Numbered from the stretch's first letter, positions 33,551 to 58,004 are shown. The stretch: 64,000 nt of DNA from an uncultured Gammaproteobacteria bacterium (GCA_964407925.1 CAYOXM010000002.1:1046-65045), one strand, 5' to 3'. Translations and numbers: made by a program. Notes: generated by a model not told the origin, from the letters alone.

Positions 33551-34789
33551 ATGGACATTGATTCATCGACATGCATCAACATGTACACCACGTTCCTGCT
33601 TCAGGCGCTCTCCGCGGTCGTCGGCGTCGCGGCGACCTTCCTCGTCGTAAAGGGAATGCTCAGTATCCGAAAAAGGGCTGACCGCGGCACGCGGACAACC
33701 ATCGACATCGGCGCCGGCGCGCTCATCGTCGCGGCGGTCGTGTACCTCGTTGCTGGCATCCCATACCCGTTGCACTTCGCCATGCCGCCGACGATGCACG
33801 CGATGACCAAGGACAAGCTGCCGGCATCGTTGCCGGTACCGTCCGTAATCCGCTTCCTCTGGAACAAGGATCGGTTTGAGAAAGTCGCCGACATCGGACG
33901 TGATCCGAACGCCGTGCCTGCGCCGATTGCACGACGGGAACCGTCGACGGTGAAAATTGACGTTCGCGCGAAGGAAGTCGTCGCCGAAATAGCGCCGGGA
34001 ATTTTCTTCAACTACTGGACCTACGACGGGCAGGTGCCCGGACCGATGTACCGGGTGCGTGCGGGCGATACCGTCGATCTCAGTTTGACCAATGATCCCA
34101 CCAGCCTGCATTCGCACAACATCGATCTGCACGCGGTCACGGGACCTGGCGGCGGCGCGGCGGTGACAGACGTCGCGCCGGGCGAGACCAAGTCCTTCCG
34201 CTGGCTCGCGAAGCATCCAGGACTGTACGAATATCACTGCGCGACCGCGAACGTCAGCACGCACAACGCGCACGGACAATACGGTCTCATCCTCGTCGAG
34301 CCCGAGGGCGGCCTCCCTCCGGTCGACAAGGAGTTCTATCTCGTGCAGGGAGAGTCCTATACCGCAGGAGGGATCGGGAAGAGGGGGATGCTGGCATTCG
34401 ACACGCGCGGCCTGATTGACGGCGAGCCGACCTATGTCACGTTCAACGGCAAGGTGGAACAGGCGCCGCGGATGAAAGCGCGCGTGGGCGACCGCATCCG
34501 CATGTACGTCGGCAACGGCGGCGTCAACCTGGTATCGTCGTTCCATGTCATCGGCGAGATTTTCGACACCGTCTACCCCGAAGCTGGGATGGGCGAAGGT
34601 TCGGCAGTCTTTAAGAACGTGCAGACGACAGCGGTGCTTCCTGGCGGCGCGACCGTCGTGGAATTCACGGTTGATGTTCCGGGCAAATACACCATCGTGG
34701 ATCACGCGCTCGCGCGGATGAACAAGGGTGCCTGGGCGGTTCTCGAGGTGGAGGGCGAGCCGAATCCCTCGGTTTTCCAGCCCTTGTAG
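33551..34789 (+). CDS. nirK: Copper-containing nitrite reductase NirK (two-domain cupredoxin) with two N-terminal TM helices. An alternative start lies at 33581.
   Basis: HSHNIDLHAV type-2 Cu His motifs, HCATANV, HAHGQYGLILVEP. The TGCTATGCT -10 element directly abuts the ATG at 33551, so the ATG at 33581 (MYTTFLLQ) may be the true start. Confidence 0.75.
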   Translation: MDIDSSTCINMYTTFLLQALSAVVGVAATFLVVKGMLSIRKRADRGTRTTIDIGAGALIVAAVVYLVAGIPYPLHFAMPPTMHAMTKDKLPASLPVPSVIRFLWNKDRFEKVADIGRDPNAVPAPIARREPSTVKIDVRAKEVVAEIAPGIFFNYWTYDGQVPGPMYRVRAGDTVDLSLTNDPTSLHSHNIDLHAVTGPGGGAAVTDVAPGETKSFRWLAKHPGLYEYHCATANVSTHNAHGQYGLILVEPEGGLPPVDKEFYLVQGESYTAGGIGKRGMLAFDTRGLIDGEPTYVTFNGKVEQAPRMKARVGDRIRMYVGNGGVNLVSSFHVIGEIFDTVYPEAGMGEGSAVFKNVQTTAVLPGGATVVEFTVDVPGKYTIVDHALARMNKGAWAVLEVEGEPNPSVFQPL

Positions 34790-36170: not shown

Positions 36171-37375
36171 CAGGAGGCGAGCCGCGTGGCGACCGCGTCG
36201 ATGAATCCTTCCGTGGTCGCCGGTTCTTTCACTTCGAGCGTCGTCAGCTGCACGAGATCTTTCGTCATGATGCCGGCGTCGACGGTGTCCATCACCGCCT
36301 TCTCGAGGCGCTTCGCGAATGCCGTCACGTCCGGCGTCTTGTCGATCTCGCCCCGCTTCGCGAGCGCGCCGGTCCAGGCGAATATGCTCGCGACCGAGTT
36401 CGTCGAGGTCGGTTCGCCCTTCTGGTGCTTGTACCAGTGCCGCTGGACCGTGCCATGCGCGGCTTCGTATTCGTACACGCCGTTCGGGCTCACGAGCACC
36501 GAGGTCATCAGGCCCAGCGACCCGTAACCCGCGGCGAGCATGTCGGACATCACGTCGCCGTCGTAGTTCATGCAGGCCCACAGGATGCCGCCCTCGTGCC
36601 GCATCACCCGCGCGACGATGTCGTCGATGAGCGTGTAGAAGTGGTGAATGCCCGCCGCGTCGAAATCCTTGCGGCGCGTCTCGACCTCCTGTTCGAAAAT
36701 CTTCCTGAACGTCCCGTGATACGTCTTCGAAATCGTGTCCTTCGTGCCGAACCAGAGGTCCATTTTCTCCGACAGCGCGTACTCGATGCAGGCGCGCGCG
36801 AACGACATGATGGACTCCTCGGTGTTGTGAATCGCCTGCGCGATTCCCGGACCCTTGAGTTCGGTGACGAGCCGGCGTTCCTCAAGGCCGTTCGCGCCCG
36901 AGTAGATCAGTTCGACTTTGCCCGGGCCCCAACAGGCGATCTCGGCATTCTTATATATGTCGCCGTAGGCGTGGCGCGCGATGACGATCGGCTTTTTCCA
37001 CGAGCGGACCATCGGCGGAATGCTTTTCACCATGATCGGCTTGCGGAACACCGTGCCGTCGAGGATGCCCCGGATGGTGGCGTTCGGGCTGTCCCACGCG
37101 CGCTTCAGCGAGTACTCGAGCACGCGGTCGTTGTTCGGGGTGATGGTGGCGCATTTCACGCCGACGCCGTGGCGCAGGATTGCCTCCGCCGCCCCGACCG
37201 TCACCTTGTCGTCGGTCGCGTCGCGGTTCTTGATGCCGAGATCGAAGTACTCGAGATTGACGTCGAGGTTCGGAAGAATCAGTTTCTCCTTGATGAGTTG
37301 CCAGATGACGCGGGTCATCTCGTCGCCGTCGAGCTCGACGAGCGGCGTCAGGACCTTCGGTTTCGTGATTGGCAT
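36170..37375 (-). CDS. icd: NADP-dependent isocitrate dehydrogenase, eukaryote-like homodimeric (IDH1/2-type) subfamily.
   Basis: Near-collinear match to IDH1: [64 protein letters not shown]. Start at MPITKPKV. Confidence 0.85.
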
Positions 37376-37435
37376 GGGCGTGCGGAAAGAGTTATCATCG
37401 TGGGCGAAGTGTACCATGACGAATTTTTGACTACT

Positions 37436-40129
37436 ATGCTCGACCCCTTCCGCGCCAAACGCACGCTCTCGACTGAGGACAGAGACGTCACCTACTATGC
37501 GCTCTCCGCGCTGCAAGAGGCGGGTTTAGCCAAAATTTCACGCCTCCCGTACGCGATTCGCGTGCTTTTGGAAGCGCTCCTGCGCACCGTCGACGGCCGT
37601 GCGGTGACTGAAGATGACGTCCGGCGACTCGCGCGCTGGGGAGAGGCGGGGAACGAAGGCGCGGAGCTCCCGTTCCGGCCCTCCCGCGTCGTCCTGCAGG
37701 ACTTCACGGGCGTCCCGTGCATCGCCGACCTCGCGGCGATGCGTGACGCGCTCGCCGAGGCCGGGGGCGATCCCGCCAAGGTGAACCCGCTCATCCCCGT
37801 CGATCTCGTCATCGACCATTCGGTGCAGGTGGACGCGCACGGCACGTCCGGCGCGCTCGCCGAAAACGTCCGGCGCGAATTCGAACGCAACGGCGAACGC
37901 TACGCGTTCCTCAAGTGGGGCCAGCGCGCGTTCGCGAACCTGCGCGTCGTCCCGCCGGCGACCGGCATCGTGCATCAGGTCAATTTGGAGCTGCTCGCGT
38001 CCGTCGTGCGCGTCGAGGAGCTCGGCGGGGAACGCGTCGCTTTCCCGGACACGGTCGTCGGCACCGACTCGCATACCACGATGATCAACGGTCTCGGCGT
38101 GCTGGGCTGGGGCGTCGGCGGCATCGAGGCGGAGGCGGCGATGCTGGGACAGCCCGTCGCCATGACCGCGCCGCCGGTCGTCGGCGTCGAACTGTCCGGC
38201 GCGTTGCGAGAAGGGGTGACGGCGACCGATCTCGTGCTCGCCATAACCGAGATCCTGCGGAAACACGGCGTCGTGGAAAAATTCGTCGAATTCCACGGGT
38301 CCGGCGCGTCCGCTCTCTCTCTCGCCGACCGCGCGACGGTCGCGAACATGGCTCCGGAATACGGCGCGACGGTCGGTTATTTCCCGATCGACGGCGAAAC
38401 GCTCCGCTACCTCCGTGCCACCGGTCGTGAGGAGCGTCATGTCGCGCTCGTCGAGGCGTACGCGAAGGCGCAGGGACTTTTCCGCGAGGACGGCGCGCCG
38501 ACCCCGTCGTATTCGGAGCGCGTCGCCATCGACCTCGCGCGCGTCGAGCCGGCCGTCGCGGGTCCGAAGCGTCCGCAGGACCGCGTTCCGCTCTCGCAGG
38601 TAAAACGATCGTTCCGCGAAGCGCTCATCGCGCCGACGGAGAAACGCGGCTACGGCCTCGCGCATGAAGCGCTGACGGGGAACGACGAGGCGGCGGTACG
38701 TCACGGATCGGTCATCATCGCCGCCATCACCAGCTGCACCAATACCTCGAATCCTTCAGTGATGCTTGCCGCGGGATTGCTCGCCAAAAAGGCGACCGAG
38801 CGGGGACTCCGCGTGCCGGACCACGTGAAAACCAGCCTCGCGCCGGGTTCGCGCGCGGTCACGGCGTATCTGGAAAAAGCAGGTCTCACCGCGCCGCTCG
38901 AGCAGCTCGGTTTCGGCGTCGTCGGCTACGGCTGCACGACGTGCATCGGGAACAGCGGACCGGTCGAAGACGCGATCGCCGAGCGCATCGAGCGTGACGG
39001 TATCGTTGCGGCCGCAGTGCTTTCCGGCAACCGCAATTTCGAAGGACGCGTGCATCCGTCAGCCAAGGCGAACTATCTCGCGTCGCCGCCGCTCGTCGTC
39101 GCATACGCGCTCGCGGGCCGCGTCGACGTCGATTTCGCGACCGAGCCGATCGGAATCGACTCCGCGGGGAAGCCGGTGACGCTCGCCGAACTTTGGCCGT
39201 CATCAGCGGAAATCGACGAAGCCATGCGCGGTGCGCTCACGCCCGAGGTGTTCCGCGAACAGTACGGCCGCGCGTTCGAGGGAAGCGCCGAGTGGCAAGC
39301 GGTGAAGGCCGCAGGAGGCGACCGCTACGCTTGGGACGCGGCTTCTTCCTACATCAAAGCGCCGCCGTTCTTCGCGTCGGCTCCCGCGAACGCGCCCGGT
39401 ATCGCCGGCGCGCGGGCGCTCGTCATGCTCGGCGACTCGGTCACGACCGACCACATCTCTCCCGCGGGCAACATCGCCATGAAGAGCGCGGCGGCGAAAT
39501 ACCTGATGGGACTTGGCGTCGTGCCTTCGGACTTCAATTCGTACGGCGCGCGTCGCGGCAACCACGAAGTGATGATGCGCGGGACGTTCGCGAACGTACG
39601 GCTCAAGAACCTTCTCGCGCCCGGCACCGAGGGCGGCGTCACGACGCACCTGCCGAGCGGCGACGTCATGAGCATCTTCGACGCGTCCGCGCGATACGTC
39701 GAAACGGGGACGCCGCTCATCGTCATCGCCGGCAAGGATTACGGCATGGGTTCTTCACGCGACTGGGCGGCAAAAGGGGTGCGACTGCTCGGCGTCAAGG
39801 CAGTGCTCTTCGAGAGCGTCGAGCGCATTCACCGAAGCAATCTCGCCGGCATGGGCATCCTGCCGCTGCAATTCAAGCCGGGAGAAACGCCCGCGACGCT
39901 CGGTCTTACGGGGCGGGAGACGTTCACCGTCGCGTACGATGCCGCGACGCTCGCACCGGGACAGGACCTGCGGATCGTCGCGCGACGCGACGATGGCGCG
40001 GAGACGACGTTCGTCGCGGTTTGCAGGCTCGATACGCCGGTCGAAATCGACTATCACCGCTGCGGCGGCATCCTCCCGTACGTCCTTCGCGCGATGTCGA
40101 AGACCGGAGCGACGCGCGTTCAGCCATAG
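37436..40129 (+). CDS. acnA: Aconitate hydratase A.
   Basis: 897 aa. N-terminus aligns with AcnA (..TYYALSAL...[17 protein letters not shown]). Cys ligands lie in the CTNTSNP and [10 protein letters not shown] regions. Confidence 0.85.
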
Positions 40130-42885: not shown

Positions 42886-43326
42886 TCACTGCTCCGTCCG
42901 TTCGGTCCAGCACGTCCTTCCGGCGGGATGGGACCAGTAGTCCGTCGCCGGGGCGACGCCCGGTTTGCCGATGGGCGCGGGTCGCGCCGGCTTTTCGGAG
43001 GGGAGTTCGAAGGTCGCACAGAGCTCGAACGACGTCGATGAGACGGCGCGGTAGCCGTACGGTTCTCCCGTCCGCGGATCAGCAGCCATGACCTCGGGGT
43101 ATCGCTCGGCGAGCGCGGCGAGCGACGCGGGAAGCGCGCCTTCCTGCTCGAGCGTCATCCGCGCGGCCGACGCGAGGGACTGGAGCGCCGCGGAACGCTC
43201 CTGGTCGAACCGCCGCATGCGCTCGTCATTCGGGTTGCCGGCCATGAATGCTCCCGCCGCCAGCGCGCATGCGGCGACGAGGGCTGCGGAAAGGGCGAGA
43301 ATCCTCCTGAGGGCGTCGGTCTTCAT
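42886..43326 (-). CDS. Small secreted hypothetical protein (~146 aa).
   Basis: Start at MKTDALRRILALSAALVAACALAAGA; its ATG overlaps the upstream stop (ATGA). Confidence 0.4.
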   Translation of the reverse strand: MKTDALRRILALSAALVAACALAAGAFMAGNPNDERMRRFDQERSAALQSLASAARMTLEQEGALPASLAALAERYPEVMAADPRTGEPYGYRAVSSTSFELCATFELPSEKPARPAPIGKPGVAPATDYWSHPAGRTCWTERTEQ

Positions 43327-43952
43327 GCGTCGTTCTCCTCGCGGCGGAGGTCCAGCAGGTAGTAGAGGAGCGTGCCACCGGTGATGGCGAGCACGGTGAG
43401 CGCCTTCAGGGCGAAGCGCGCCGTCATGTCCCCCTCGAGAAACCCGTTGATGAGGGCGATCAGGTCGACGATTCCGGCGGCTCCCGCGGTGAACAGCGTC
43501 ACGTACGTGAGCCACTTGCGCACCTTCGACGCGCGCTTCGCGGGGTCGCGCCGCGCCGCCCGTTCCGCCGTCCAGGACAGGAAGGCGAACACGGGGCCGG
43601 CGACGACGAGCGCCGAAAGCGCGAGGCGCACGGTCGACGCGGAACCGTTGGCGTACTGGTTCAGCGGATCGGCGATCAGCCGGTCGATGCCTTCGAATGC
43701 CAGCGTGCCGACGCTGAACGCGCTGATGTAGAGGCAGAGGAAGAGCGTGAGGTAGTGGAACGCCTCACGCGCCGAAAGGTACGGCTTGCGACGCGGAACG
43801 GGCACGGGAAAATCCATGTCGACATAGGCGTCGAGCGCGTCGCGCACGTCGTCGTCCGGCCAGCCGGCGTCCTTCAGGGCGGCGGCGATTTTGACGTTTT
43901 CGACGCCGCGGACCTTCGCTTCCTTTACGAAATCCTTCAGCTCCTGCTCCAT
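43323..43952 (-). CDS. Membrane protein with an N-terminal soluble helical domain and four TM helices (DUF5671-like; assignment uncertain).
   Basis: 209-aa ORF with high GC3. Confidence 0.45.
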   Translation of the reverse strand: MEQELKDFVKEAKVRGVENVKIAAALKDAGWPDDDVRDALDAYVDMDFPVPVPRRKPYLSAREAFHYLTLFLCLYISAFSVGTLAFEGIDRLIADPLNQYANGSASTVRLALSALVVAGPVFAFLSWTAERAARRDPAKRASKVRKWLTYVTLFTAGAAGIVDLIALINGFLEGDMTARFALKALTVLAITGGTLLYYLLDLRREENDA

Positions 43953-44053: not shown

Positions 44054-44326
44054 CTAGGCGAGCGGAGAAGGCCGGCCTTCGTTGACGTCGCCGGCGAAAA
44101 AATACGCGGAACGGTATTCTTCGCCGAGGCCGCGCAGAAACGCCTCGCCGTCGGCGGGATAGGTCTGCCGCGCGAGCTGCATCGAGAAGACGCCGTCGGC
44201 CGCGATGCGCGCGCCGAGCGCGACGTCCCCCTCCCAGCTGACGTCCGTGCCGTCAAACGTGAACCTGACGAGCGTGATCGCCCTCCTCGCCGCCGCGTCA
44301 AACGTGCTGATATCGACCCATTGCAT
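44054..44326 (-). CDS. Small hypothetical protein (~90 aa) immediately downstream of the kinase-like gene.
   Basis: Start at MQWVDISTFD, 5 nt after the stop of the upstream gene. Confidence 0.35.
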   Translation of the reverse strand: MQWVDISTFDAAARRAITLVRFTFDGTDVSWEGDVALGARIAADGVFSMQLARQTYPADGEAFLRGLGEEYRSAYFFAGDVNEGRPSPLA

Positions 44327-44331
44327 ATTCG

Positions 44332-46602
44332 TCAGCCCTTGCCGATGCCGGCGTGAAAAATCGTCCACTCCGAATCCGGCAGGCGGAAATCGGGATCCGC
44401 GGCGCGGTGCAGCCTGCCCTCGAACTCCCTCCATGACCGCTTGCCGTCCTTCGGTCCGAGGAGCGTCATGAACATTTCCTTCAGGATGGCGAGCACCTCG
44501 CGATTTTCGAGAAGGTCCTCGACATTCTTGCGCAGGCCTTCGGGGACGGGCTCTCCGTTGACCTCCGTCAGCGGGAAGGAGCGCAGCTTGTCGTAATCGT
44601 GTACCCGTTCTCCGAAAATCGCGCCGTTGTCGATTGCGACATGCTTGCCGTCCTTGCTGATGAGCCAGTTGCCTGCGTGCCGGTCGCTGTTCTGCGTAAG
44701 CCAGTCAAACAGCCCGAGCTTTTTCAGCTCCTCGCGATGCCGGTCCTCCGCCCATCCGACGGTCGTCGCGACGTCGCCGACCTTCCAGTCCTGAACCGCG
44801 GCGATGCCTTCGGGTCCGTTGCGCAGGACCGTCGCTGGCACGAGGCCGAAACGCAACGCGCGGTCGATGAACGACGCCAGCACTTCGCGTCCCACCATGC
44901 CGCCTTCCGGAATGCCGTCGCGAACGCCGCGCTCGCGCAATCGCGACTTGTACAGCGCGGGCATGTCGCGGCCCTCGATGAGGACGTATCGCGGGCTGTT
45001 CGCGCTTTCGCCGCTGACGGCGCCGACGCGCTGAATGCGTCCGTGCAGCCGCTGCTCGTCGCCCACGCGCGACCGCTCGGCCTCGGCAGCGCCCAGAATG
45101 GTTCGTTCCATCGCGAGCATCAGGTCAACGCTCGCCCTGTCGGTCTTTTCGATGAGCATCGCGGCTTCCTTCTCCTCGCGCGTCTCCCTGCGCTCGGGCA
45201 GGGAGTGCGCACGCGCCTCGTCAAGCATCGCCTCGGCGTCGCTGCTCGGGACGCCGAGCGCGTCCATGAGCGACAGCCGCTGCTCCATCGGGTAGCGGCG
45301 GAGGATGTCGACGACCGTGTCATGCGAAAAACGCATCGCCTCGGCGGCGCTCGGTAGCAGGGCGGGATTTTTTTCGAGCAAGTCCTGCGTAACCGCGATT
45401 TTTTCTTCCAAAGAAAGGTCGGAACCCGTCGCCGCGACGTAATCAGGGAAGGCGTCGGGATGCTTTCTGGCCAATCGAAGACCGACGGCGAGCTTCTCGG
45501 AGGCGCTCAGGCCGAGTTCGTCAAGACGACCGCCCAGTTCGGGAAGACCCGCGACCATGGTGACGAGCGCGTCGATTTGCGCGTCCGGTCCGAGGTCGGG
45601 CAACCGCTTGAGCCCCTCGAGCGCCGACGGCGGATGCGCTTCCGCAAGGATGCGCAAATTCCTTATCTGGCGCTCCAGCGGAAGGTCGGCCAGCGCTTTA
45701 GCCGATGCGGAGGGGTTCGATTCGACGAGCGCGTCGGCGATTTTCACGTCAGCCACGCCCTCGAACAGCTCGGGAAACTCCTTAAGTACCGGCGTGCCGC
45801 CCTTGACGACGGCGCGCAGAAGAAGCGGTTCGCGGTCGTCATCCGCGGGAGGCGTTCGGCGCATCGCCTCGAGCGCCATGCGGACGTCGAACGAGGAGCC
45901 GCCGCCCGTCGCGAGCACTTCCGCGGGCGCCATCTTCCTGCGCTGCGCCGCCGCCGTCCGTTTTCCGAGATACGTCTCGAAAAAACGGCGGCGCACTGCC
46001 GGACCGGCCTCTTCGAGCAGTCCCGCGTAACGCTCGGCGAGGGGAAGGGCGGCGGCGTCGAGCGAGGCGAAGTCAAGTTTGGCCTCGATCTCGGGCCAGT
46101 CGTCCGGATGCGCACGCGCGGCGGCCTCGAACTTGTCATCAATGACCGCCATGAACGCGTCGGGGTCGTCGCGCAATTTCTCCGGCATTTTGTCCAGTGC
46201 GCCCGCGGTGGCGGGGAAAAAATGCCGATCGAGGAAATCCAGGTACGCGCGCGAACCCTCGGTCTCCGGTGCCTCTTCGGCGATAGCTTCGGCCTCGCGC
46301 CGCGCCTCTTCCGCGATCGCCCGCATGCGTTCGGCGTTCTCGCGAAGGAACTCCTCGCTGTCGCGCTTCAGCTGGGTAAGTTCGAACGGGACGTCGTCCA
46401 GGCCTTCGGTCGCGGAACCCATGACGGCGGCAGCCTGCCTCTCGGCCTCTGCGATGTCGTCGATGAGCGCGCGATACTCGCGTCCCGACGACTCCCTCGG
46501 CGTTTCTCTACCCTCCGAAAGCGGCTCCGGCCGCCCTTCAGGGCCGACGGGCCGCTCCGGAAACGGCATTTCGCGCGACTGTTCCGTCGGCATACGCGTC
46601 AT
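44332..46602 (-). CDS. Large (~755 aa) protein with a C-terminal PI3K/PI4K-like atypical kinase catalytic signature; the acidic alpha-helical N-terminal ~550 aa has no recognised domain.
   Basis: C-terminus LGLFDWLTQNSDRHAGNWLISKDGKHVAIDNGAIFG aligns with the PI3/4K catalytic loop GDRHxxN and the DFG-like IDxG motif. Confidence 0.55.
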   Translation of the reverse strand: MTRMPTEQSREMPFPERPVGPEGRPEPLSEGRETPRESSGREYRALIDDIAEAERQAAAVMGSATEGLDDVPFELTQLKRDSEEFLRENAERMRAIAEEARREAEAIAEEAPETEGSRAYLDFLDRHFFPATAGALDKMPEKLRDDPDAFMAVIDDKFEAAARAHPDDWPEIEAKLDFASLDAAALPLAERYAGLLEEAGPAVRRRFFETYLGKRTAAAQRRKMAPAEVLATGGGSSFDVRMALEAMRRTPPADDDREPLLLRAVVKGGTPVLKEFPELFEGVADVKIADALVESNPSASAKALADLPLERQIRNLRILAEAHPPSALEGLKRLPDLGPDAQIDALVTMVAGLPELGGRLDELGLSASEKLAVGLRLARKHPDAFPDYVAATGSDLSLEEKIAVTQDLLEKNPALLPSAAEAMRFSHDTVVDILRRYPMEQRLSLMDALGVPSSDAEAMLDEARAHSLPERRETREEKEAAMLIEKTDRASVDLMLAMERTILGAAEAERSRVGDEQRLHGRIQRVGAVSGESANSPRYVLIEGRDMPALYKSRLRERGVRDGIPEGGMVGREVLASFIDRALRFGLVPATVLRNGPEGIAAVQDWKVGDVATTVGWAEDRHREELKKLGLFDWLTQNSDRHAGNWLISKDGKHVAIDNGAIFGERVHDYDKLRSFPLTEVNGEPVPEGLRKNVEDLLENREVLAILKEMFMTLLGPKDGKRSWREFEGRLHRAADPDFRLPDSEWTIFHAGIGKG

Positions 46603-46853
46603 TCGAGGCTTTTACGGACGTTATCCGCCTTTACGCGCGCCGCCGCGCGCGCGAACCCATCAGCGGTTTCGCGCCGGCGTTTCTTGAGTTCGGCGATGCG
46701 TGCTTTCGCGCGTTCGTAGATCGCCTTCACCCGCGTTTCCTTGTCCGTGGTCATCGATTCGGTCATGGTCGCTCCGCCTTCCCGCCGCACCGCCATCGCG
46801 CCGAAAATCACGACGGTCGCCGCGACGGCGGCGAGCAGTGCCAAGGTCGGCAT
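46599..46853 (-). CDS. Small single-TM protein (84 aa), translationally coupled (ATGA overlap) to the kinase-like gene.
   Basis: MPTLALLAAVAATVVIFGAMAV TM segment followed by a basic coiled-coil tail. Confidence 0.35.
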   Translation of the reverse strand: MPTLALLAAVAATVVIFGAMAVRREGGATMTESMTTDKETRVKAIYERAKARIAELKKRRRETADGFARAAARVKADNVRKSLE

Positions 46854-46966
46854 ATGCTGAAAGTGTACCTGCCTGCGGCCCCTTTGACAAAGACGCTCAA
46901 GGGAGGAACAGTACCGTCGTCCCTCGGAGGGACGCGTTCATTTCCAAGGAGAAAGGGAACCACGTC

Positions 46967-48706
46967 ATGCACTTCCTCCTCATCGCCGCCGCAGTGGCCG
47001 TACTCGGCGCGCTGCCGTTGCTTTTTCGGCGACGGTTCGGTGCCGCGTCGAAACTCGCGGCCGTAGCGGCGCTCGTCGCCGCCGCGGTCGAATACTTCGC
47101 GCTGCCTTCGGCCGTATGGCCGTTTTGGGGAGCGACGGGCATCCTCGTCGTCGCCTGCTGGGCGGTCGCCGGCATTGTCGCCTATACGCACGACGAACGC
47201 GAGCGCGAAAGGCAGTACGACCGGCGACGCGACTACCGGTCCGTCGACAGTGCCGCCGAACGTCGGTCGCTCTTGCTCGCCGCAGGCTGGCCGGTAATCG
47301 GAGCCGTCCTGCTCGCGATACGATTCGCCTCGAGCTGGGCCGCGTTCCGCGCGCCGGAATACGTCGCGCTCATCGGCGAAGTGCAGCGGAGCGACTGGGC
47401 CAAGGACGTACAGCGCGCCGATCCGCGGCACATCCGTCTCGTGCCGCAGGAGATGGCGCACTGGCTCGCCAACAAACAGCTCGGCGAAGCGCCTGGCGCG
47501 GTCGGCAGCCAGTTCCAGATCGCCGAGGAGTCGCTGACGCTGCAGATGATCAGGGGCGAGCTGTGGTACGTCGCGCCGCTCGACTTCAAGGACTTCGGCG
47601 CCTGGCAGTCCGCCGGCGCGTCACCAGGGTACGTCATGGTGCACGCGGAAGACCCGCTGCGTCAGGTCATCGTCGTCACGGACCGGAAGTTCACGTACAC
47701 GCCGAACGCCTGCTTCGGAAACAACCTCGAACGGCATCTCTGGACCGCGGGTTGGCGCACGAAAGGCCTCACCGACTGGTCGCTCGAAATCGACGAGGCG
47801 GGCAAGGCGTGGTGGATCGTCTCCGTCTACGAGCCGACGATCGGCTGGAAGGGCGAGCGCGTGCTCGGCGTCGTCATCGTGGACCCGGAAAACGGCGATA
47901 CCGCGTTCCATGCGGTCGGCGACGTGCCGCATTGGGTGGACCGCGTGTTCCCCAAGGCGTTCGTGCAGCGCTACATCTCGTCCTGGGGCGCGTACTCGAA
48001 CGGCTGGCTGAACGGCTGGTGGTACAAGAAAGACGTCACCGAACCCGAGACGCCATCCATCGTCTATGGCGCCGACGGCGAACCGTACTGGGTGACCGGG
48101 GTGACGTCGACGAACGAGCATGACGAGTCGCTCGTCGGGCTGATGTACACGCACACCCGCACGGGGAAGTCCGTCTTCTACCGCGCGGTCGGCGGCACGG
48201 ATTCAGCCGTGCTCCAAGCGGTCAACAACAAGGTCGCCTACCGGAAGCTGCACGGCGCGAGCCCGGTCCTCTACAACCTGTACGGGACCATGGCATCCAT
48301 CGTGCCCCTCCTCGGCGAAAGCCACACCTTCCAAGGAGTGGCCATCGTCCGGATCGACAATCTCCAAGTCGCCGTCGGCGAAACGCCGGTCCAGGCGCTC
48401 GAGGAGTACCGCAAGCTCATTCCCGAAAGCGTCGACCGCATCGAACCGTCCGCAAGCGACCATTCGCGGACCATCGAGGGCAAGGTCGCCCGCATCGCCG
48501 ACATCGGCGGCGGCACATACTACGTCTACCTCGAGGGCGTTCCTACGGTGTTCGTCGGTTCGCGGGAGCATGCTCGGGCGATGCCGCTCACGAAGCCCGG
48601 CGATAAAGTACGCATCAGATACCTCGCCTCGGGCGAGTCGCCGCCCATAGTCTCGTTCGAGAACCTCTCTCTGCCGATCGTCTCCGGCCCACCGCCGGAG
48701 AAGTAG
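46967..48706 (+). CDS. Membrane protein with four N-terminal TM helices and a large (~450 aa) extracytoplasmic domain of unknown function.
   Basis: ATG at 46967 (MHFLLIAAAVAVLGALPLLF), preceded by an AAGGAGA Shine-Dalgarno sequence at 46945-46951, one of the few clear Shine-Dalgarno sequences in the window. Confidence 0.5.
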   Translation: MHFLLIAAAVAVLGALPLLFRRRFGAASKLAAVAALVAAAVEYFALPSAVWPFWGATGILVVACWAVAGIVAYTHDERERERQYDRRRDYRSVDSAAERRSLLLAAGWPVIGAVLLAIRFASSWAAFRAPEYVALIGEVQRSDWAKDVQRADPRHIRLVPQEMAHWLANKQLGEAPGAVGSQFQIAEESLTLQMIRGELWYVAPLDFKDFGAWQSAGASPGYVMVHAEDPLRQVIVVTDRKFTYTPNACFGNNLERHLWTAGWRTKGLTDWSLEIDEAGKAWWIVSVYEPTIGWKGERVLGVVIVDPENGDTAFHAVGDVPHWVDRVFPKAFVQRYISSWGAYSNGWLNGWWYKKDVTEPETPSIVYGADGEPYWVTGVTSTNEHDESLVGLMYTHTRTGKSVFYRAVGGTDSAVLQAVNNKVAYRKLHGASPVLYNLYGTMASIVPLLGESHTFQGVAIVRIDNLQVAVGETPVQALEEYRKLIPESVDRIEPSASDHSRTIEGKVARIADIGGGTYYVYLEGVPTVFVGSREHARAMPLTKPGDKVRIRYLASGESPPIVSFENLSLPIVSGPPPEK

Positions 48707-48768: not shown

Positions 48769-49347
48769 ATGGAAGGATTCCTCGCGCGGGCCGTGACCGC
48801 AGCCGTCGTGCTGGCGAGTTTCGGCCTCTATCACCTCGTGAACGGACGAAAGCCGCGGACGCGCGTGCTCATGACGCCGTTCGATGACGCCATCCCGTTC
48901 GTGCCCGCATTCAGCGTGCCGTATATGCTGTATTTTCCGTTCCTGTTCGGCACGGTGCTGTACGGCATTTTGGCGACCGCTGAGTGGCGCGCGGTCGCGA
49001 TGGCGACGGTGCTCATTCAAGCCGCCGCGTCGCTTACGTACCTCCTTTTTCAAACGCACGTGCCCCGGCCCATCGTCGAGGGGAAGGGACCGTTCGCGGC
49101 GCTGACGCGGTACGTCTATGCCAACGACCAGCCGTATAACTGCTTCCCGAGCCTGCACGTGGCGCACGCGGCCGGATGCCTGTACTGGTCGGCATCGTTT
49201 TTCCCCGCGTTCACGGCCGCCTTCGCCGCGCTGGCGGTCGCCATCATCCTTTCGACGATGTTCATCAAGCAGCACGCCGTCGCCGACGTCGCCGGAGGAC
49301 TCGTCCTCGTCGCGGCCGCGTTCAGCGTCGTTTCGGTCGTCGCGTGA
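48769..49347 (+). CDS. PAP2-superfamily membrane phosphatase.
   Basis: PSLHVAHA and KQHAVADVAGG, matching the PAP2 motif 2 and 3 pattern. Confidence 0.6.
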   Translation: MEGFLARAVTAAVVLASFGLYHLVNGRKPRTRVLMTPFDDAIPFVPAFSVPYMLYFPFLFGTVLYGILATAEWRAVAMATVLIQAAASLTYLLFQTHVPRPIVEGKGPFAALTRYVYANDQPYNCFPSLHVAHAAGCLYWSASFFPAFTAAFAALAVAIILSTMFIKQHAVADVAGGLVLVAAAFSVVSVVA

Positions 49348-49432: not shown

Positions 49433-50116
49433 TCAATCGGCCATCGTCCCGTGGATGAGCACCGTCCCGACGACCTTCCCTTGGGGATTCTTGAGCGGCG
49501 ATGCCCAAAGTTTGACGTCGATGACCGCGCCGTCCTTCCGTTTCCGTCGCGCCTTCGCGCCTTCGAGGATGCGCCCCTCGGCGATATGGCGCCGCATGCG
49601 CGTGAACTCGTCCTTGTCGGTATCCGTTATCGTGGGAAGGATTTTTCCGACGGCCTCTTCGGCGGACCAGCCGAACAGGCGGACCGACGCGGGATTCCAT
49701 TCCGTGACGTTGCCTTGCAGGTCGAGCGCGGCGATGGACGCCGGCGCCCCCTGCACGATGTCCATCATGCGTTTCGCGCGGCTTTCGCTGTCCTGCAGGC
49801 TGAGCGTCTTTTTCACGACGACCTGTTCCAGCTTGTCCGAATACTCCCGAATCTCCGCCTCGTGCCGCTCCTGCATCTTCGTCATCATCCGGAACAGGAT
49901 GGCGAGCATCGTCTGCGAGAGGACGATGGCCACGATCGTGATGAGCCAGGCCGGCCTGTCGAATTTCACCCCCGCCGGCAGCTTCGCGTCGACGAACTGC
50001 AGCAGTCCGGCGGTCGCGGCGATGCCGGTGCCGGCGATGAACACGCAGCCGGCGATGAATTTGTCGCGTAACGCCTTGATGTCGTTTGAGGTCGGCATAG
50101 GTTTTTCGTGATTCAT
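49433..50116 (-). CDS. Membrane-anchored PAS-domain protein without an output domain.
   Basis: Start at MNHEKPMPT (ATGA overlap with the upstream gene), two TM helices, then a PAS-like region DIVQGAPASIAALDLQGNVTEWNPASVRLFGWSAEEAVGK. Confidence 0.55.
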   Translation of the reverse strand: MNHEKPMPTSNDIKALRDKFIAGCVFIAGTGIAATAGLLQFVDAKLPAGVKFDRPAWLITIVAIVLSQTMLAILFRMMTKMQERHEAEIREYSDKLEQVVVKKTLSLQDSESRAKRMMDIVQGAPASIAALDLQGNVTEWNPASVRLFGWSAEEAVGKILPTITDTDKDEFTRMRRHIAEGRILEGAKARRKRKDGAVIDVKLWASPLKNPQGKVVGTVLIHGTMAD

Positions 50117-51864
50117 CGTCCCCACGATGCGTAGGGAGCGGTCATGAGCAAGGAAGATCCGGAATCGGGGCAGCGGAACGATACGGCACCGGTATCCGAC
50201 GTGGCCAAGGCGTCGGCCCAGAAGCACGGCGTCGTTCCCGCGCAGGCGCGAACGAGCGCTGCGGGTGCCGTGGCACGGACGGTCTCGCCGGGGGTGCAGG
50301 GGACGGCCGCGGGGCGCATGCGCCAACCGCAGTCGCGGAGCGGCCCGTACTCCAGAGTATCGCATTCCGCCGTAACCGCGCCACCCGTCCTGGGGATGCT
50401 CACGGTGACGCTCGCCCTGTCGTTCGTATAAAACTCCGGATTCTCCCTGCAGGCCTGCTTGAGCGCGGGCTTGCCCGAAGGCCCGAGTACGGGGTTTCCG
50501 GCGGCATCCAGGGCGGGAACGTACTTGCCCGGGACGGCCTCACCCTCGCACAGGAGCCGCAGCGGATTCACTTGCATGGCAAGGGAGAATTCCTGTGACT
50601 CGCCCTCGATCGCCAAGTCGGTAATGTCGATCCATTGGCAGTCGAGACCGATGAAATACTCGTCCTCCCAGCCCGCGCTGATGCCTTGGTTTTCGCAGGA
50701 GGCGAAGGGCGTGGTGAACGCCACGTCGGCGGCGTTCGCGGCGCGGCCGGTGCTTTCGACGCAGAACGACTGCTTCGCGCCCGGGAGTACGGGTTTTCCG
50801 TCCTTCTCGAGTGAAAATTCGCCGTAACCGTTAAAGTGATAGTGGCCGTGGCACTGCGACCAGGCGAATTGGTTCGTCTTTTCGATGAGCGCGTTCACGT
50901 CGCCGAAAGCCAGGTCACGATCGCCGAGGTTGGGGGTGACGGCGCGGAATCGCAGCAGCCGCCGCATTCCGGGCCCTCCCACGCAGCCCTCCGCCACGGC
51001 ACAGGAGTCGGGCGTGAAATGCTTATAGATGATGTCATAATCCTTGAGCGCTGCCGCATCGACGCTGATATCCGCACCGCCGACGGAGCGGGGGTGCGCG
51101 GCGGCGAGCTTTTCCGCGACGGCGGGGTCGTACGCGATCCGCTCCATCCGCACGTAGAGCGCCCCCACGCCGTTCTCCCGCGCCAAAACGTCGAGGCACG
51201 GCTCAAGAGGAAGGCCCCCGGGGTGTTCGCAAACGGGGACGCCGGGCGCGCATTTTGGATCGAAGTAATTTCCGTAATTGCGGTCATCCACGAGTCCGAG
51301 CGGTATCTCGTCCTGATTAGCGCAGGCGTATCCAAGCCGCTGGAAGAGATTCCGCGGGTCGGACGGCACGATGAACGTTTCGACGTGGACGCCGCCCACT
51401 TCGGCGAGCGCCTCGGCGGACTGCGCGAGCGAGTCCGCGGGGGCGACGACGTGTCCAGAAAGGACGTAGGGAATCGCGACGGTTGCCCGACGCTCGTCGT
51501 ACGTCGGATCGCCGGCCGCGAGAGCGAGGTCGTCGAACGGGATCGGCATCGCCGGTTCGCGGAAAATGACCTGAAGATAGCTGGTCGACGCCTGTCGCCG
51601 GATCAACTTTTCCAGCGTCGCCGCCGAAACTGCGCTCGGCTTCATGAAAGCCTCACGTACCGCGAGCCGACGTTCGCGGCCCTCCGGCAATTGCAGGACG
51701 ATCCGGCCGCGAACCTCGACCGTCGCCATCGCCGGTTCCGCCGTCACCTTGCCGCCGGAAGTGCCAAAATTGAGCAGGACGAGCGCCTTCACCATCACGA
51801 GCAGCACGATGACGATGAGGAGGACGATGACGCCCGTCCCGCCGTGCGGATTCCTGTTTGCCAT
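50113..51864 (-). CDS. Membrane-anchored extracytoplasmic protein with a lysyl-oxidase-like copper/LTQ catalytic-site motif.
   Basis: N-terminal TM GVIVLLIVIVLLVMVKALVLL; QFAWSQCHGHYHFNGYGEF compared with lysyl-oxidase WEWHSCHQHYHSMDEF. Confidence 0.55.
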   Translation of the reverse strand: MANRNPHGGTGVIVLLIVIVLLVMVKALVLLNFGTSGGKVTAEPAMATVEVRGRIVLQLPEGRERRLAVREAFMKPSAVSAATLEKLIRRQASTSYLQVIFREPAMPIPFDDLALAAGDPTYDERRATVAIPYVLSGHVVAPADSLAQSAEALAEVGGVHVETFIVPSDPRNLFQRLGYACANQDEIPLGLVDDRNYGNYFDPKCAPGVPVCEHPGGLPLEPCLDVLARENGVGALYVRMERIAYDPAVAEKLAAAHPRSVGGADISVDAAALKDYDIIYKHFTPDSCAVAEGCVGGPGMRRLLRFRAVTPNLGDRDLAFGDVNALIEKTNQFAWSQCHGHYHFNGYGEFSLEKDGKPVLPGAKQSFCVESTGRAANAADVAFTTPFASCENQGISAGWEDEYFIGLDCQWIDITDLAIEGESQEFSLAMQVNPLRLLCEGEAVPGKYVPALDAAGNPVLGPSGKPALKQACRENPEFYTNDRASVTVSIPRTGGAVTAECDTLEYGPLRDCGWRMRPAAVPCTPGETVRATAPAALVRACAGTTPCFWADALATSDTGAVSFRCPDSGSSLLMTAPYASWGR

Positions 51865-54846: not shown

Positions 54847-54945
54847 TCGCGTTACGTTTCTCCGTCTGCGCCGTAGAAGAATGTGGTACACTTTTTTAGG
54901 ACACTCAGGCGCGCGTCACACGCTCGCGCCGTAACCTCCGCAACC

Positions 54946-55893
54946 ATGCTTAACCGGAAACCGCTCGTCATAGGCGTTGTCGCCGTCGTCGGCCTCGCCG
55001 TGCTCCTCGCCACGGCGTCGCTCCTGCGCGATTCCCGTCCCGCCGTCACGTCCGGCTCGGCGGCGCTCGGCATCGCGCCGCAAGTCGCCCCGCGGATGCT
55101 TTCCAAAACCTCCGGCATCGCGGAAATGGCGTATGACGCGTCGGAGAACGGCAGCGCGCCGTCGATGGGCATGCCCGTCCCCATGCCGCCGACCGCCGGC
55201 GAAACCGCCGCCGAAGTCGATCAGAAAATCATCAAAAACGGCTCCATCAGGATGACCGTGGACGACGTGTCCGCGGCGTCGGACCGCATTTCGGCGATCG
55301 CGACGGCCAAGGGAGGCTTCGTCCAAGGCTCATCCTCTTCGGAAAGGACGGACGGCACGCGCGAGGGTTACGTCACCATCAGGGTTCCCTCGAAGGACTT
55401 CGAGGCGACGATGACGGAAGTGAAAGCGCTTGCGAAACTCGTCCGCAACGATTCCACGAACAGCCAGGACGTGACCGAGCAGTTCACCGACCTCGCGGCG
55501 CAGCTGCGCAACGCCAAGAAGCAGGAGGAGACGTACCTCGCCGTGCTCGCGAAGGCTTCGACGGTCGAGGACATCCTCAAGGTGCAAGAGCGCCTCGGCT
55601 ACGTTCGGGGCACCATCGAATCGCTCGAGGGACGGATGAAGTACCTCGAGAACGTCACGTCATATTCGACCGTCAGCGTCACGCTCGAGGAAGAACCGGC
55701 GGTCCGCCTGCCCACGAAGGAGTTCCGTCCGGCCGCAGCGGTGAAGGCCGCCGTGCAGGCGCTCGTCGCCGCGTTCCAAAAAACCGTCGAGGCGCTCATC
55801 TGGATTGTCATCGTCGGCGGCGGCATCGCCGCGCCCGTCGCGCTCCTCGCGTTCGCCGTCCGCGCCGTCGCGCGCCGCGCTAAAAAAGAGTGA
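54946..55893 (+). CDS. DUF4349 domain protein with N-terminal and C-terminal TM helices.
   Basis: Start at MLNRKPLVIGVVAVVGLAVLL; central coiled-coil and ...IESLEGRMKYLE... region typical of DUF4349. Confidence 0.5.
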   Translation: MLNRKPLVIGVVAVVGLAVLLATASLLRDSRPAVTSGSAALGIAPQVAPRMLSKTSGIAEMAYDASENGSAPSMGMPVPMPPTAGETAAEVDQKIIKNGSIRMTVDDVSAASDRISAIATAKGGFVQGSSSSERTDGTREGYVTIRVPSKDFEATMTEVKALAKLVRNDSTNSQDVTEQFTDLAAQLRNAKKQEETYLAVLAKASTVEDILKVQERLGYVRGTIESLEGRMKYLENVTSYSTVSVTLEEEPAVRLPTKEFRPAAAVKAAVQALVAAFQKTVEALIWIVIVGGGIAAPVALLAFAVRAVARRAKKE

Positions 55894-55924
55894 GTGTTAC
55901 CTCGAGCCGGATGCCGCGTAGTGC

Positions 55925-56521
55925 ATGACGGAGGACGACGCGATTCCCATGACCGAAAAAGACGACGGACAACTCGTCGAGGCCGCGCTCGCGGGGGATG
56001 CCGGGGCGTTTGGCGCGCTGTATGACCGGTACGTCAGGAAGATCCACGAGTACCTGTTCTACCGCTGCCACCACCGCGAAACGGCCGAAGATCTCACCAG
56101 CCTGACGTTTACGAAGGCGCTCGAGCGCCTTGCGAGCTTTGACGCGGGAAAGGGGACGTTCTCCGCATGGGTGTACCGCATCGCGCGCAACGCGCTCATC
56201 GACCACTTCCGCGCGCAGAAGCCCGGAACGGACATCGAGGACGTCTGGGACCTCCTGCGCGACGGCACCGACGTGGCACGCGACGCCGAAACCGCGGAGC
56301 GCCTGCGGCAGGTGGAGGCGCACCTCGCGGCGCTGCCGTCGGCGCAGCGCGAACTCGTCATCATGCGCGTCTGGGACGGACTGTCGTACGCGGAAATCGC
56401 GGAAGCGACCGGTAAGTCCGAAGCGGCATGCAAGATGGCCTTCTCGCGGACGATTGCCGCGCTCCGCAAGGCGCTCCCGCTCGCCGCGATCCTCCTCTTG
56501 CTCGCGAAACCGTTACCGTAA
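55925..56521 (+). CDS. ECF-type RNA polymerase sigma factor (sigma-70 regions 2 and 4).
   Basis: Region 2 (LYDRYVRKIHEYLFYRC...FSAWVYRIARNALIDHFR) and region 4 (LVIMRVWDGLSYAEIAEATG). Confidence 0.75.
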   Translation: MTEDDAIPMTEKDDGQLVEAALAGDAGAFGALYDRYVRKIHEYLFYRCHHRETAEDLTSLTFTKALERLASFDAGKGTFSAWVYRIARNALIDHFRAQKPGTDIEDVWDLLRDGTDVARDAETAERLRQVEAHLAALPSAQRELVIMRVWDGLSYAEIAEATGKSEAACKMAFSRTIAALRKALPLAAILLLLAKPLP

Positions 56522-56525: not shown

Positions 56526-58004
56526 ATGCATGACCAGCGCATCATCGACGACGTGCTGCAGGAACTGTATGCCGTCGACCCGACGCTCCGCGACCAGGAG
56601 GACCGCCTCGTCAAGGCCGTCCGCGCCCTGCTCGCCGCCAAACCCGAAGCCGCGCTCGACGAGCGATTCGTCCGCGAATTGCGGAAGGAACTCCTCGGAA
56701 CGTTTTCAGCGGCGACGGCGTCCGTAAAACCGAATATTTTCGACTTCATTATGAAAAACGACTCACTCAAATATCTCGTTCCGAGCGGCATCGTCGCCGT
56801 CCTCGTGCTCTCCGTACTCGTTTCCACGAAGGCCCCCGGTTCCCCCTCGTCAGCGCCGGCCGCGTCCGTCGCGACCGAATCCGCGGCAGAGGCGGGAGGC
56901 GTGCGGGTGTCCAAAGTCGCCGACGGCGCGTTCGGCGTCCTTTCCACAGGCGTCGGTGCCGATCAGGCGCCTATGGCGGCGAATCTCGGCCGCGGCGGCG
57001 GTGGCGGGGGTAACGGGTCGGCGCCTGCCGTGCCGATGGCCGACAGCAAGATGATGCTGCCATACGTGCCGTCGTACTATGCGTATTCCTACGCCGGCGA
57101 CCTCGCGCTCGACGACGAATCCGTCCCCGTCTACCGGCGTCAGAAGGGCGGTTCCTCGGCGGTCTCCGGCGGCTTGCTCGACGCCGCCACGCTCGGTCTT
57201 GTCGATCCGTCGCGTCTCGACGCCGTCGGCCTCCAGTCGCTCGCGCTCGTCCAAGACAAGGAATTCGGCTATTACGTCTACGTCGACATGAACGAGGGCA
57301 TGATTTCGCTCAGCCAGAACTACGCGAAATGGCCGCACCCGGAACAGGAATGCCGCGACGAGGAGTGTTTCGCGCGCTACCGGCTGCATGAGTCGGACAT
57401 GTTGTCCGATGCCGAGACGTTCGCCGTCGCCGACGCGTTCCTCAAGGAACTCGGCGTGAACGTCGGATCGTACGGCAGTCCGGCCGTCGCCTACGACTGG
57501 CGCACGCAGTACGCGTCGCTGAAGGGCGAGGACCGCGCCGCGTTCTACTTCCCCGAGACCGTTTCCGTCGTCTATCCGCTCGTCATCGACGGGCAGAAGG
57601 TCTACGACGAGTCGGGGAATCCGACGGGCCTCACCGTGAACGTCAACGTCCGGCACAAGCGTGCCGACGGCCTGTGGAACCTGACGACCCTCAAGTACGA
57701 CAGCGCGCAGTACGCCGCGGTCACGGACAAGTCGAAGCTCATGGGCGTCGTCGCGCGCGGCGGCGTCTACGAGGCGACCCCGCCCGATGACGCGAAGACC
57801 GAGGAGGTCGGTTTGGGAACGCCGGAACGCGTGCTCATGCGCGCGTGGTCGGGCGGACAGGAGGTCGTGGTACCGGCGCTGCGCTTCCCGGTCACGAAGA
57901 AGCCCGAAGGGCAGCCGTGGTTCCGCGACGCGGTGATGATTCCGCTCGTCAGGGACCTGATCGACGTCCCCGCGGCGAATCCCGTCCCCATGATGGTAAA
58001 GTGA
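56526..58004 (+). CDS. Probable anti-sigma factor: short cytoplasmic N-terminal helical domain, one TM helix, and a large extracytoplasmic domain.
   Basis: Starts 5 nt after the sigma-factor stop. TM segment IVAVLVLSVLVS. Operon position. Confidence 0.5.
   Translation: MHDQRIIDDVLQELYAVDPTLRDQEDRLVKAVRALLAAKPEAALDERFVRELRKELLGTFSAATASVKPNIFDFIMKNDSLKYLVPSGIVAVLVLSVLVSTKAPGSPSSAPAASVATESAAEAGGVRVSKVADGAFGVLSTGVGADQAPMAANLGRGGGGGGNGSAPAVPMADSKMMLPYVPSYYAYSYAGDLALDDESVPVYRRQKGGSSAVSGGLLDAATLGLVDPSRLDAVGLQSLALVQDKEFGYYVYVDMNEGMISLSQNYAKWPHPEQECRDEECFARYRLHESDMLSDAETFAVADAFLKELGVNVGSYGSPAVAYDWRTQYASLKGEDRAAFYFPETVSVVYPLVIDGQKVYDESGNPTGLTVNVNVRHKRADGLWNLTTLKYDSAQYAAVTDKSKLMGVVARGGVYEATPPDDAKTEEVGLGTPERVLMRAWSGGQEVVVPALRFPVTKKPEGQPWFRDAVMIPLVRDLIDVPAANPVPMMVK

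Follow-up and report, generated by a model that had tools for sequence, protein, structure and literature searches.

Type II phosphatidylinositol 4-kinases (PI4Ks) are eukaryotic lipid kinases known from solved structures of PI4K2A and PI4K2B (PDB 4hnd/4hne, 4pla, 4wtv), which carry a CCPCC palmitoylation insert. Class I-III phosphatidylinositol 3-kinases (PI3Ks) and type III PI4Ks belong to the same Pfam family, and in them a helical-repeat domain precedes the kinase domain. A bacterial branch of this kinase family is the actinobacterial, PI3/PI4-kinase-like SCO1664 family (NCBIfam TIGR03843), consisting of stand-alone proteins of ~260 aa whose gene is invariably linked to mshC of the biosynthesis of mycothiol, an inositol-containing compound (PMC4255298). 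In the HipBST system, the small protein HipS, which corresponds to the N-terminal subdomain of HipA, neutralises the split kinase HipT, which in turn targets TrpS (PMC10627512, PMC9325769, PMC6581861). Here we describe a three-gene cassette at positions 44054-46853 of a 64,000-nucleotide stretch filed under an uncultured Gammaproteobacteria bacterium (GCA_964407925.1, CAYOXM010000002.1:1046-65045; hereafter the window, at its full length). It encodes a 756-aa protein with a PI3/PI4-kinase-family catalytic domain and two small partner proteins, and its products may form a membrane-associated kinase complex. The cassette comprises the following open reading frames (ORFs):

46599-46853, minus strand: gene of the 84-aa protein (partner 1)
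44332-46602, minus strand: gene of the 756-aa kinase, starting at ATG 46602 or alternatively at ATG 46593
44054-44326, minus strand: gene of the 90-aa protein (partner 2), ATG 44326 being the conserved start

An earlier note on this DNA had placed three minus-strand ORFs here, all of which are present in the sequence, and the peptide quoted in it, LGLFDWLTQNSDRHAGNWLISKDGKHVAIDNGAIFG, was found within the translation of the 756-aa protein.

The 756-aa kinase and its catalytic domain

The PI3/PI4-kinase-like catalytic signature that the earlier note had recognised in the large protein was borne out by family searches. Pfam PF00454 (PI3_PI4_kinase) matched residues 621-713 with 39.0 bits versus a gathering cutoff of 27.1 (E 1.1e-9), passing the threshold of the family's hidden Markov model (HMM), and the same tag is precomputed on proteins P0001-P0003. 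A profile of the kinase and two close homologues retrieved 1429 proteins at E<=1e-3 from 1.84 billion representatives. When a 29-sequence domain profile was run against all PDB sequences, human PI4K2A was on top (4hnd_A, E 1.2e-9), followed by PI4K2B (4wtv_A, E 6e-8), while type III PI4K, PI3K and FAM20 kinases reached only E 7e-4 to 0.03. It took this 29-sequence domain profile to make the PI4K2 matches significant, as a phmmer search of the PDB with the single 756-aa sequence gave no match and a 3-sequence profile gave insignificant matches only. As far as sequence profiles go, these results confirm that the catalytic domain is a true PI3/PI4-kinase-family domain, with a motif match far beyond chance, and that its nearest solved relatives, to which it appears most similar, are the eukaryotic type II PI4Ks. 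The sequence set beside it in the earlier note is of the class I-III PI3K/type III PI4K kind, where matches were marginal (E 1e-3 to 0.03); both the type II PI4Ks and the SCO1664 family are nearer. Although the class I-III PI3Ks and type III PI4Ks share the Pfam family and also have a helical-repeat domain ahead of the kinase domain, their matches (E 8e-4 to 0.03) cover the catalytic-loop/DFG region only, and the helical region of the 756-aa protein bears no specific similarity to theirs.

The alignment with PI4K2 is collinear through a P-loop-like segment, the lysine strand, the hinge, the catalytic loop, IDNG and RxxP, although these motif blocks alone align and whole-domain identity is low. 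Given as PI4K2 versus the kinase family, AVFKPKNEEP corresponds to AVYKPrsrE around the ATP-binding lysine, LNIVPRT to LdiVPaT in the VP.T hinge segment, LDYIIRNTDRGNDNWLI to FDWLTQNSDRHAGNWLI in the catalytic loop (core NTDRGNDNWLI to NSDRHAGNWLI), AAIDNGLAFP to VAIDNGAIFG around the metal-binding Asp, and WRAYPF to LRSFPL in the R-x-[YF]-P-[FL] segment, where, downstream of IDNG, R-S-F-P-L of the window kinase aligns with R-A-Y-P-F of PI4K2A. The features of the domain are listed below; residue conservation refers here and throughout to an alignment of 70 domain relatives.

44335-45105, minus strand: residues 500-756, type II PI4K-like/SCO1664-like catalytic domain (PF00454, TIGR03843, PDB profile, conservation)
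44947-44949, minus strand: codon of K552, predicted ATP-binding lysine in the motif A-L-Y-K-S (consensus AVYKP), 96% conserved, aligned with AVFKPKNEEP of PI4K2A/B
44668-44685, minus strand: codons of the catalytic loop D640-R-H-A-G-N645, aligned with NTDRGNDNWLI of PI4K2A
44629-44631, minus strand: codon of D658 in the I-D-N-G motif, metal-binding DFG equivalent, 100% conserved, aligned with AAIDNGLAFP of PI4K2A

The earlier note had proposed looking for an ATP-binding lysine and a Gly-rich loop upstream of the catalytic loop. Such a lysine exists as K552, 88 residues ahead of D640, and the GSSGS loop of PI4K2 finds its counterpart in a P-loop-like S-A-N-S-P segment. Conservation reaches 99% for the helix-C Glu E573, the salt-bridge partner of K552, 99% for P589, 97% for T591 and 97% for Q604; within the catalytic loop it is 99% for D640, 90% for R641, 86% for H642 and 96% for N645. 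The whole catalytic set (Lys, helix-C Glu, DRHxxN and DFG-like Asp) is present in the window protein and is 86-100% conserved among the relatives.

TIGR03843 covered the N-lobe, residues 521-608, with 72 bits, the best stretch taking in positions 4-91 of the 253 in the model, short of the whole-protein threshold of 172.4 bits, while the domain profile retrieved named SCO1664-family members at E about 1e-21. No HipA_C, HipA_2 or other HipA Pfam model matched the kinase at E<=1, and D-R-H-A-G-N is without the Lys of DxHxKN, in agreement with the earlier view that a HipA-type reading fits less well. By these measures, the kinase belongs neither to the SCO1664 equivalog nor to the HipA family. It further matched PADLOC PDC-M03A (candidate-defence, E 0.0017) and phrog_3162 (E 1.4e-5), in the catalytic loop only and with no functional information attached.

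Ahead of the catalytic domain, residues 1-499 are helical (DSSP of the AlphaFold2 (AF2) model) and acidic, with a pI of 4.7 and a net charge of -34, and three parts were distinguished:

46273-46602, minus strand: residues 1-110, acidic, partly disordered, then a long helix; weakly conserved in relatives of 560-590 aa
45658-46272, minus strand: residues 111-315, lineage-specific helical expansion, absent from the 560-590-aa relatives; the fastest-evolving part, 45% identical to the closest relative (locus L001)
45106-45657, minus strand: residues 316-499, conserved alpha-helical repeat (solenoid) ahead of the catalytic domain, kept in ~20 representative clusters

The middle part is taken as an expansion because the 560-590-aa relatives align solely to residues 1-110 and about 290/315-756. 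In the AF2 model, calculated from a 3-sequence alignment, residues 240-465 form a helical-repeat solenoid with a predicted local distance difference test score (pLDDT) of 70-88, and a Foldseek search with the kinase model returned only generic HEAT/ARM/TPR alpha-solenoids at E>=0.01. The earlier description of an acidic, alpha-helical remainder was therefore accurate, while its statement that no domain is recognisable now applies in part: the conserved helical repeat has been delimited, and it finds generic matches only. The 756-aa protein contains no cysteine.

Compared with the closest relative, the ratio of nonsynonymous to synonymous change (dN/dS) was 0.18 for the whole kinase gene and 0.12 for the kinase domain, within a range of 0.12-0.27, and because of these values we regard the gene as functional and, to judge from its codons, under purifying selection. 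Its dN of 0.30 is nonetheless 4-7 times that of the flanking genes (0.045-0.08), and protein identity is 61% versus 88-92% for the flanking genes.

In the same AF2 model, pLDDT fell below 50 across residues 467-690, because the alignment held three sequences, and since the model of the catalytic domain is poor, the fold assignment rests on the sequence profiles. Some relatives have degenerate catalytic loops. In L012, L018 and L019, AQ[TA]DG[KR]PAN stands for NSDRHxGN, with Asp and Asn kept and Arg and His lost, and the L017 kinase has DGH at this place; these kinases may have altered chemistry or regulation. It is scarcely credible, however, that the motif resemblance of the window protein is due to chance or that the protein is an inactive pseudokinase scaffold: the low-confidence model, which would fit such a view, is explained by the three-sequence alignment, and the degraded loops (DGH, DG[KR]PAN) belong to relatives, whereas the window protein retains every catalytic residue, its profile matches are significant and its kinase domain shows a dN/dS of 0.12.

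The three-gene cassette and its small proteins

The three genes are tightly packed. The ATGA overlap at 46599-46602 and the beginning of the 90-aa ORF 5 nt past the kinase stop, both given in the earlier note, were read directly from the sequence, although the kinase start itself is either of two ATGs nine bases apart, because in the two closest relatives the kinase begins at the equivalent of M4 (ATG 46593), 3-6 nt past the upstream stop. The longest ORF in the frame of partner 2 extends to 44434. Two promoter-like sites accompany the cassette:

46862-46890, minus strand: sigma-70-like match TTGTCA-17-TACACT, 9 nt upstream of the 84-aa gene; consensus match only
44022-43994, minus strand: second promoter-like site, in the 101-nt gap before the next gene (DUF5671 protein); consensus match only

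The first is the putative start of the cassette transcript. Two such sites in 4 kb, versus 0.4 expected, one before the cassette and one before the next gene, suggest that the three genes may be their own single transcription unit.

Related loci (L001 to L021) were collected by exact-protein look-ups, by a pattern scan of GTDB genomes, which gave no loci with alignment A1, so that the window's genome is probably no species representative there, and gave loci with alignment A6, and by look-ups starting from the small protein. A member of the partner 2 family adjoins a kinase-family gene in 12 of 12 assessable loci; the adjacency is seen in the window, L001, L003, L006, L007, L008, L009, L010, L012, L017, L018, L019 and L020. 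A reciprocal search with the partner 2 family found 23 clusters only among 5.8 billion proteins, with the kinase alongside in all four new contexts. The partner 1 family, as detected by HMM, occurs in ten loci, always directly before the kinase, and the ATGA overlap between its stop and the kinase start is kept in the window and in five loci (L006 to L010). The co-occurrence of the small ORFs with the kinase, which the earlier note had left to be checked, thus holds for both, as they stay beside kinase domains only 29-55% identical to that of the window (29-38% in the most distant). The cassette appears to be a conserved unit; nothing beyond it is conserved around it between lineages, where the flanks are unrelated.

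Two other layouts were found. In Candidatus Uhrbacteria, a 136-aa partner 2, lengthened at its N-terminus by a helical extension, comes after the kinase, and in a Falkowbacteria-like clade (L012, L018 and L019) partner 2, again with an N-terminal extension, precedes the kinase; partner 1 is lacking in both. These extensions were considered as a fused partner 1, but BLAST gave E 0.12 in a tiny database and the partner 1 HMM nothing at E<=0.01, and they are kept here only as a putative helical/amphipathic extension. In L017, the cassette has a divergent neighbour (1365-2771, minus strand) whose 468-aa product contains a Stp1-like Ser/Thr phosphatase domain of the PP2C type, with a score of 70.6 bits that is below the cutoff.

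All named homologues of the module come from Patescibacteria, also called the candidate phyla radiation (CPR), and the named partner 2 clusters from Candidatus Uhrbacteria, Candidatus Falkowbacteria and the 'Patescibacteria group'. The named kinase homologues stem from a homologue search that recovered 24 proteins, in which low-complexity ERER words probably filled the candidate list. Bins titled Vicinamibacterales, Acutalibacteraceae and Gammaproteobacteria that hold relatives are short contigs and were not taken as reliable taxonomy. From these records, the module would be rare and seen so far only in CPR-type bacteria. Its homologues are all named 'hypothetical protein' in the databases, and literature searches turned up no account of the module, the helical-domain subfamily or the two small families; the PAP2-PIK-like modules treated in a 2026 preprint are of a different family. 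What is new is a known kinase family in a three-component, CPR-restricted architecture.

Partner 1 has an N-terminal transmembrane helix at residues 4-22, as the earlier note had predicted for an upstream single-pass protein, followed by Arg/Lys and then by a basic helix with the conserved motif [IV]KxIYxRAKxxLxxL[KR]KER; its pI is 10.65. The transmembrane helix is present in five of six lineages (19-residue Kyte-Doolittle mean 2.1-2.8), and by the positive-inside rule the conserved helix would face the cytoplasm. Partner 2 is an acidic alpha/beta protein with the hallmark motif PxDGExFL...Y. AF2, run on a 23-sequence alignment, folded it with a pLDDT of 95.4 and a predicted TM score (pTM) of 0.86 in the order b1-b2-b3-a1-b4-b5-a2-b6. 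Where partner 1 is lacking (L012, L018 and L019), the N-terminal helix of partner 2 is strongly amphipathic, with a hydrophobic moment of 0.57-0.61. Scans of Pfam, NCBIfam, PADLOC and PHROGs gave no match for either small protein, and a sequence search with partner 2 gave none in the PDB. Partners 1 and 2 are two new small-protein families, now annotated merely as hypothetical, and both were found only beside CPR-type kinases and once as a fusion. The fusion lies on L021 (IMG/VR UViG_3300033233_000014, 3617-5133), where the stop of a 301-aa stand-alone kinase relative overlaps the start of the next gene, which encodes a HAD-partner 2-like protein; the N-terminus of this protein is HAD-like (Hydrolase_3, 23.6 bits vs cutoff 20.9) and its C-terminal ~70 aa match the partner 2 family (PRDGVAFLRAL). 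This arrangement shows that a partner 2 domain can apparently bring a phosphatase to the kinase; the substrate is not settled thereby.

Partner 2 also weakly resembles HipS, and this brings in a possible, if rather doubtful, explanation of the cassette as a HipBST-like tripartite toxin-antitoxin (TA) or abortive-infection system, with a growth-arresting Ser/Thr kinase (acting, e.g., on an aminoacyl-tRNA synthetase), a 90-aa HipS-type antitoxin and an 84-aa modulator. With this resemblance, the HipA idea comes back in another form, although the kinase itself has no HipA match: HipT is a HipA_C kinase, whereas the module kinase is a PI3_PI4_kinase with another catalytic-loop motif (DRHxxN versus DxHxKN). 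With HipS neutralising the TrpS-targeting HipT as a precedent (PMC10627512, PMC9325769, PMC6581861), it fits that the kinase is preceded on its own strand, at a distance of 62 nt, by trpS (TIGR00233, 346 bits) in the Uhrbacteria loci L003, L004 and L005 (e.g., L003 4956-5939), but this adjacency is limited to one lineage and may be chance. The small gene precedes the kinase in L012, L018 and L019, as in hipS-hipT, and a small upstream gene overlapping the kinase start is what TA operons typically show; on the other hand, the third component of HipBST is a helix-turn-helix (HTH) repressor, while the upstream protein here matches no HTH family, leaving the module without a HipB-like component, and is a membrane protein. 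A rare and patchy module with unrelated flanks, whose kinase and partner 2 accumulate nonsynonymous changes 4-7 times faster than their neighbours, would suit a conflict system, yet the cassette is not flanked by genes of mobile elements, and in composition it does not stand out (~65% GC, the same as the rest of the window). The weak match to PDC-M03A also speaks for the toxin-antitoxin explanation, and the PP2C-type phosphatase of L017 agrees with a protein substrate; such toxins, however, are normally without a helical-repeat N-terminal domain of 300-500 aa.

A proposed membrane-tethered complex and its substrate

We favour, still tentatively and with somewhat more doubt than confidence, the view that the three proteins are subunits of a membrane-associated kinase complex, an accessory trait carried by some bacteria of the CPR/Patescibacteria type. 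In this proposal, the 756-aa catalytic subunit, with its complete type II PI4K-like active site, would phosphorylate a hydroxyl group with the gamma-phosphate of ATP. As a single-pass membrane anchor, the 84-aa protein would use its basic helix on the cytoplasmic side to hold the acidic, helical N-terminal half of the kinase against the membrane's inner face. The 90-aa protein would be an obligate small subunit, bound to the kinase and gating or directing it, as HipS controls HipT. The substrate would most likely be found at the membrane, with a lipid head group slightly ahead of a protein.

Three observations suggest that the three proteins work as a complex: their genes are strictly linked, translation is coupled, and the charges of partner 1 (pI 10.65) and of the N-terminal half of the kinase (pI 4.7) are complementary. 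Action at the cytoplasmic face of the membrane is likewise suggested by the presence of a transmembrane anchor and of an amphipathic helix where the anchor is absent; taken together, these observations led us to prefer a kinase that is tethered to the membrane and served by a small subunit, either a gate or an adaptor. Compared with PI4K2, the protein is found in a bacterial host, is helical over an N-terminal half of 500 aa, comes with two small partners dedicated to it, and is without the CCPCC insert. Because it has no cysteine, palmitoylation as in the type II PI4Ks is impossible, and membrane attachment would come from the separate transmembrane partner.

The lean towards a lipid comes from several sources. 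The nearest characterised relatives of the kinase are lipid kinases. Two giant homologues carry three to four tandem copies of the kinase domain, together with GDPD, Abhydrolase_8 and a Gln_amidase toxin domain in P0066 (2892 aa), and with DUF4347 and weak HipA_2 matches in P0045 (3184 aa); GDPD and alpha/beta-hydrolase (lipase-type) domains favour a lipid or other hydroxyl substrate. We also counted towards a lipid substrate a gene 1.9 kb from the cassette (48769-49347, plus strand) whose product, a membrane protein of 192 aa, belongs to PAP2_3 (33.3 bits vs cutoff 27), a superfamily of lipid phosphatases and phosphotransferases. The link of SCO1664 to the biosynthesis of mycothiol (PMC4255298) was counted towards a lipid or other hydroxyl substrate.

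Several points weigh against the membrane-tethered complex or its lipid lean. Partner 1 of L006 has no transmembrane segment. The PAP2_3 neighbour occurs in this window only and was not seen in the examined flanks of other loci. Two hints, each from one lineage, point to a protein substrate, namely the PP2C-type phosphatase beside the L017 cassette and trpS upstream in Uhrbacteria. Rarity and patchy distribution suit an accessory enzyme no better than a conflict module, and the AF2 model of the kinase domain is poor, its fold being predicted from profiles only.

Since SCO1664-family proteins are among the homologues at E 1e-21 and TIGR03843 matches the N-lobe, the kinase might instead be a cytoplasmic small-molecule kinase that acts on inositol, a sugar or a similar hydroxyl metabolite, as presumed for SCO1664, with the small proteins as accessories not essential to catalysis. 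We consider this unlikely. The 72 bits are far below the cutoff of 172, and the CPR subfamily adds helical domains, a membrane anchor and an obligate partner, none of which is present in the SCO1664 proteins. The invariable linkage of SCO1664 to mshC, and thus to an inositol-containing product (PMC4255298), would speak for a metabolite, but no metabolic genes are conserved beside the cassette. The L021 kinase relative with its HAD-partner 2 fusion would suggest a kinase/phosphatase pair on one substrate.

Export of the protein, as an effector phosphorylating phosphoinositides or proteins of the host cell of the CPR bacterium, appears very improbable. The earlier note had offered a host-interaction effector as one of its explanations, and this found no other support for secretion either: the N-terminus of the kinase is acidic, disordered and without a signal peptide, no secretion-system genes lie nearby in the window, and the conserved helix of partner 1 would, by its topology, be cytoplasmic. 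Type II PI4K-like chemistry is otherwise found in eukaryotes and the named homologues come from episymbiotic CPR lineages, but hosts, if bacterial, mostly lack phosphoinositides. The fast evolution of the gene relative to its neighbours and the toxin-like domains (Gln_amidase, GDPD) of the giant multi-domain homologues would be in keeping with an effector.

CPR bacteria cannot make their own lipids. A narrower form of the membrane-tethered proposal, in which a membrane-anchored type II PI4K-like complex phosphorylates scavenged (host-derived) inositol or other hydroxyl lipids under a HipS-like clamp subunit, is speculative, and we would give it little credence at present.

Genomic surroundings and significance

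Divergent from the cassette, a gene at 46964-48706 (plus strand) encodes a 580-aa membrane protein with several N-terminal transmembrane helices and a ~400-aa domain of no Pfam family; it is kept at the same position only in the closest relative, L002 (69% identity), and the PAP2_3 gene sits just past it. After the cassette follow a DUF5671 membrane protein (43323-43952, minus strand, 100.7 bits) and an overlapping gene of a 146-aa protein (42886-43326, minus strand), which are syntenic in L001 (91% and 72% identity) and absent beside the cassette in more distant relatives. Many proteins of the window are without a Pfam family (e.g., 56850-59210, 16578-18623 and 20655-22373), and a search of the 64-kb window for tRNA and tmRNA genes found none. 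A 1234-aa ORF at 36425-40129 (plus strand) has an aconitase domain only from residue 410, and the long stretch before it is probably not protein but an ORF over-extension of the sort typical in high-GC DNA. Further genes encode a lysyl-oxidase-like protein (50113-51864, minus strand), a multicopper oxidase (33239-34789, plus strand), a DUF4349 protein followed by an ECF sigma factor (54883-56521, plus strand) and PAS histidine kinases. With aconitase, multicopper oxidase, lysyl-oxidase-like protein, PAS histidine kinases and DUF4349/ECF sigma, the window does not obviously look like part of a minimal genome, and the 'reduced genome' of the earlier note is an assumption.

The bacterial PI3/PI4-kinase family is numerous (1429 representative clusters), and in its SCO1664/type II PI4K-like branch we found none with a known substrate. 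The module described here offers a well-defined case with genetic partners, combining a PI4K type II-like catalytic subunit, a predicted membrane anchor and a confidently folding small subunit outside described families. It opens the questions of whether bacterial type II PI4K-like enzymes act on lipids or on proteins, whether HipS-like 'split kinase' control exists beyond the HipA family, and what role an accessory, fast-evolving kinase module has in ultra-small symbiotic bacteria. If scavenged lipids were indeed its substrate, the module would be a prokaryotic three-subunit counterpart of the eukaryotic phosphoinositide kinases, and a common 'small subunit plus kinase' regulatory logic would apply to PI4K-like and HipA-like kinases.

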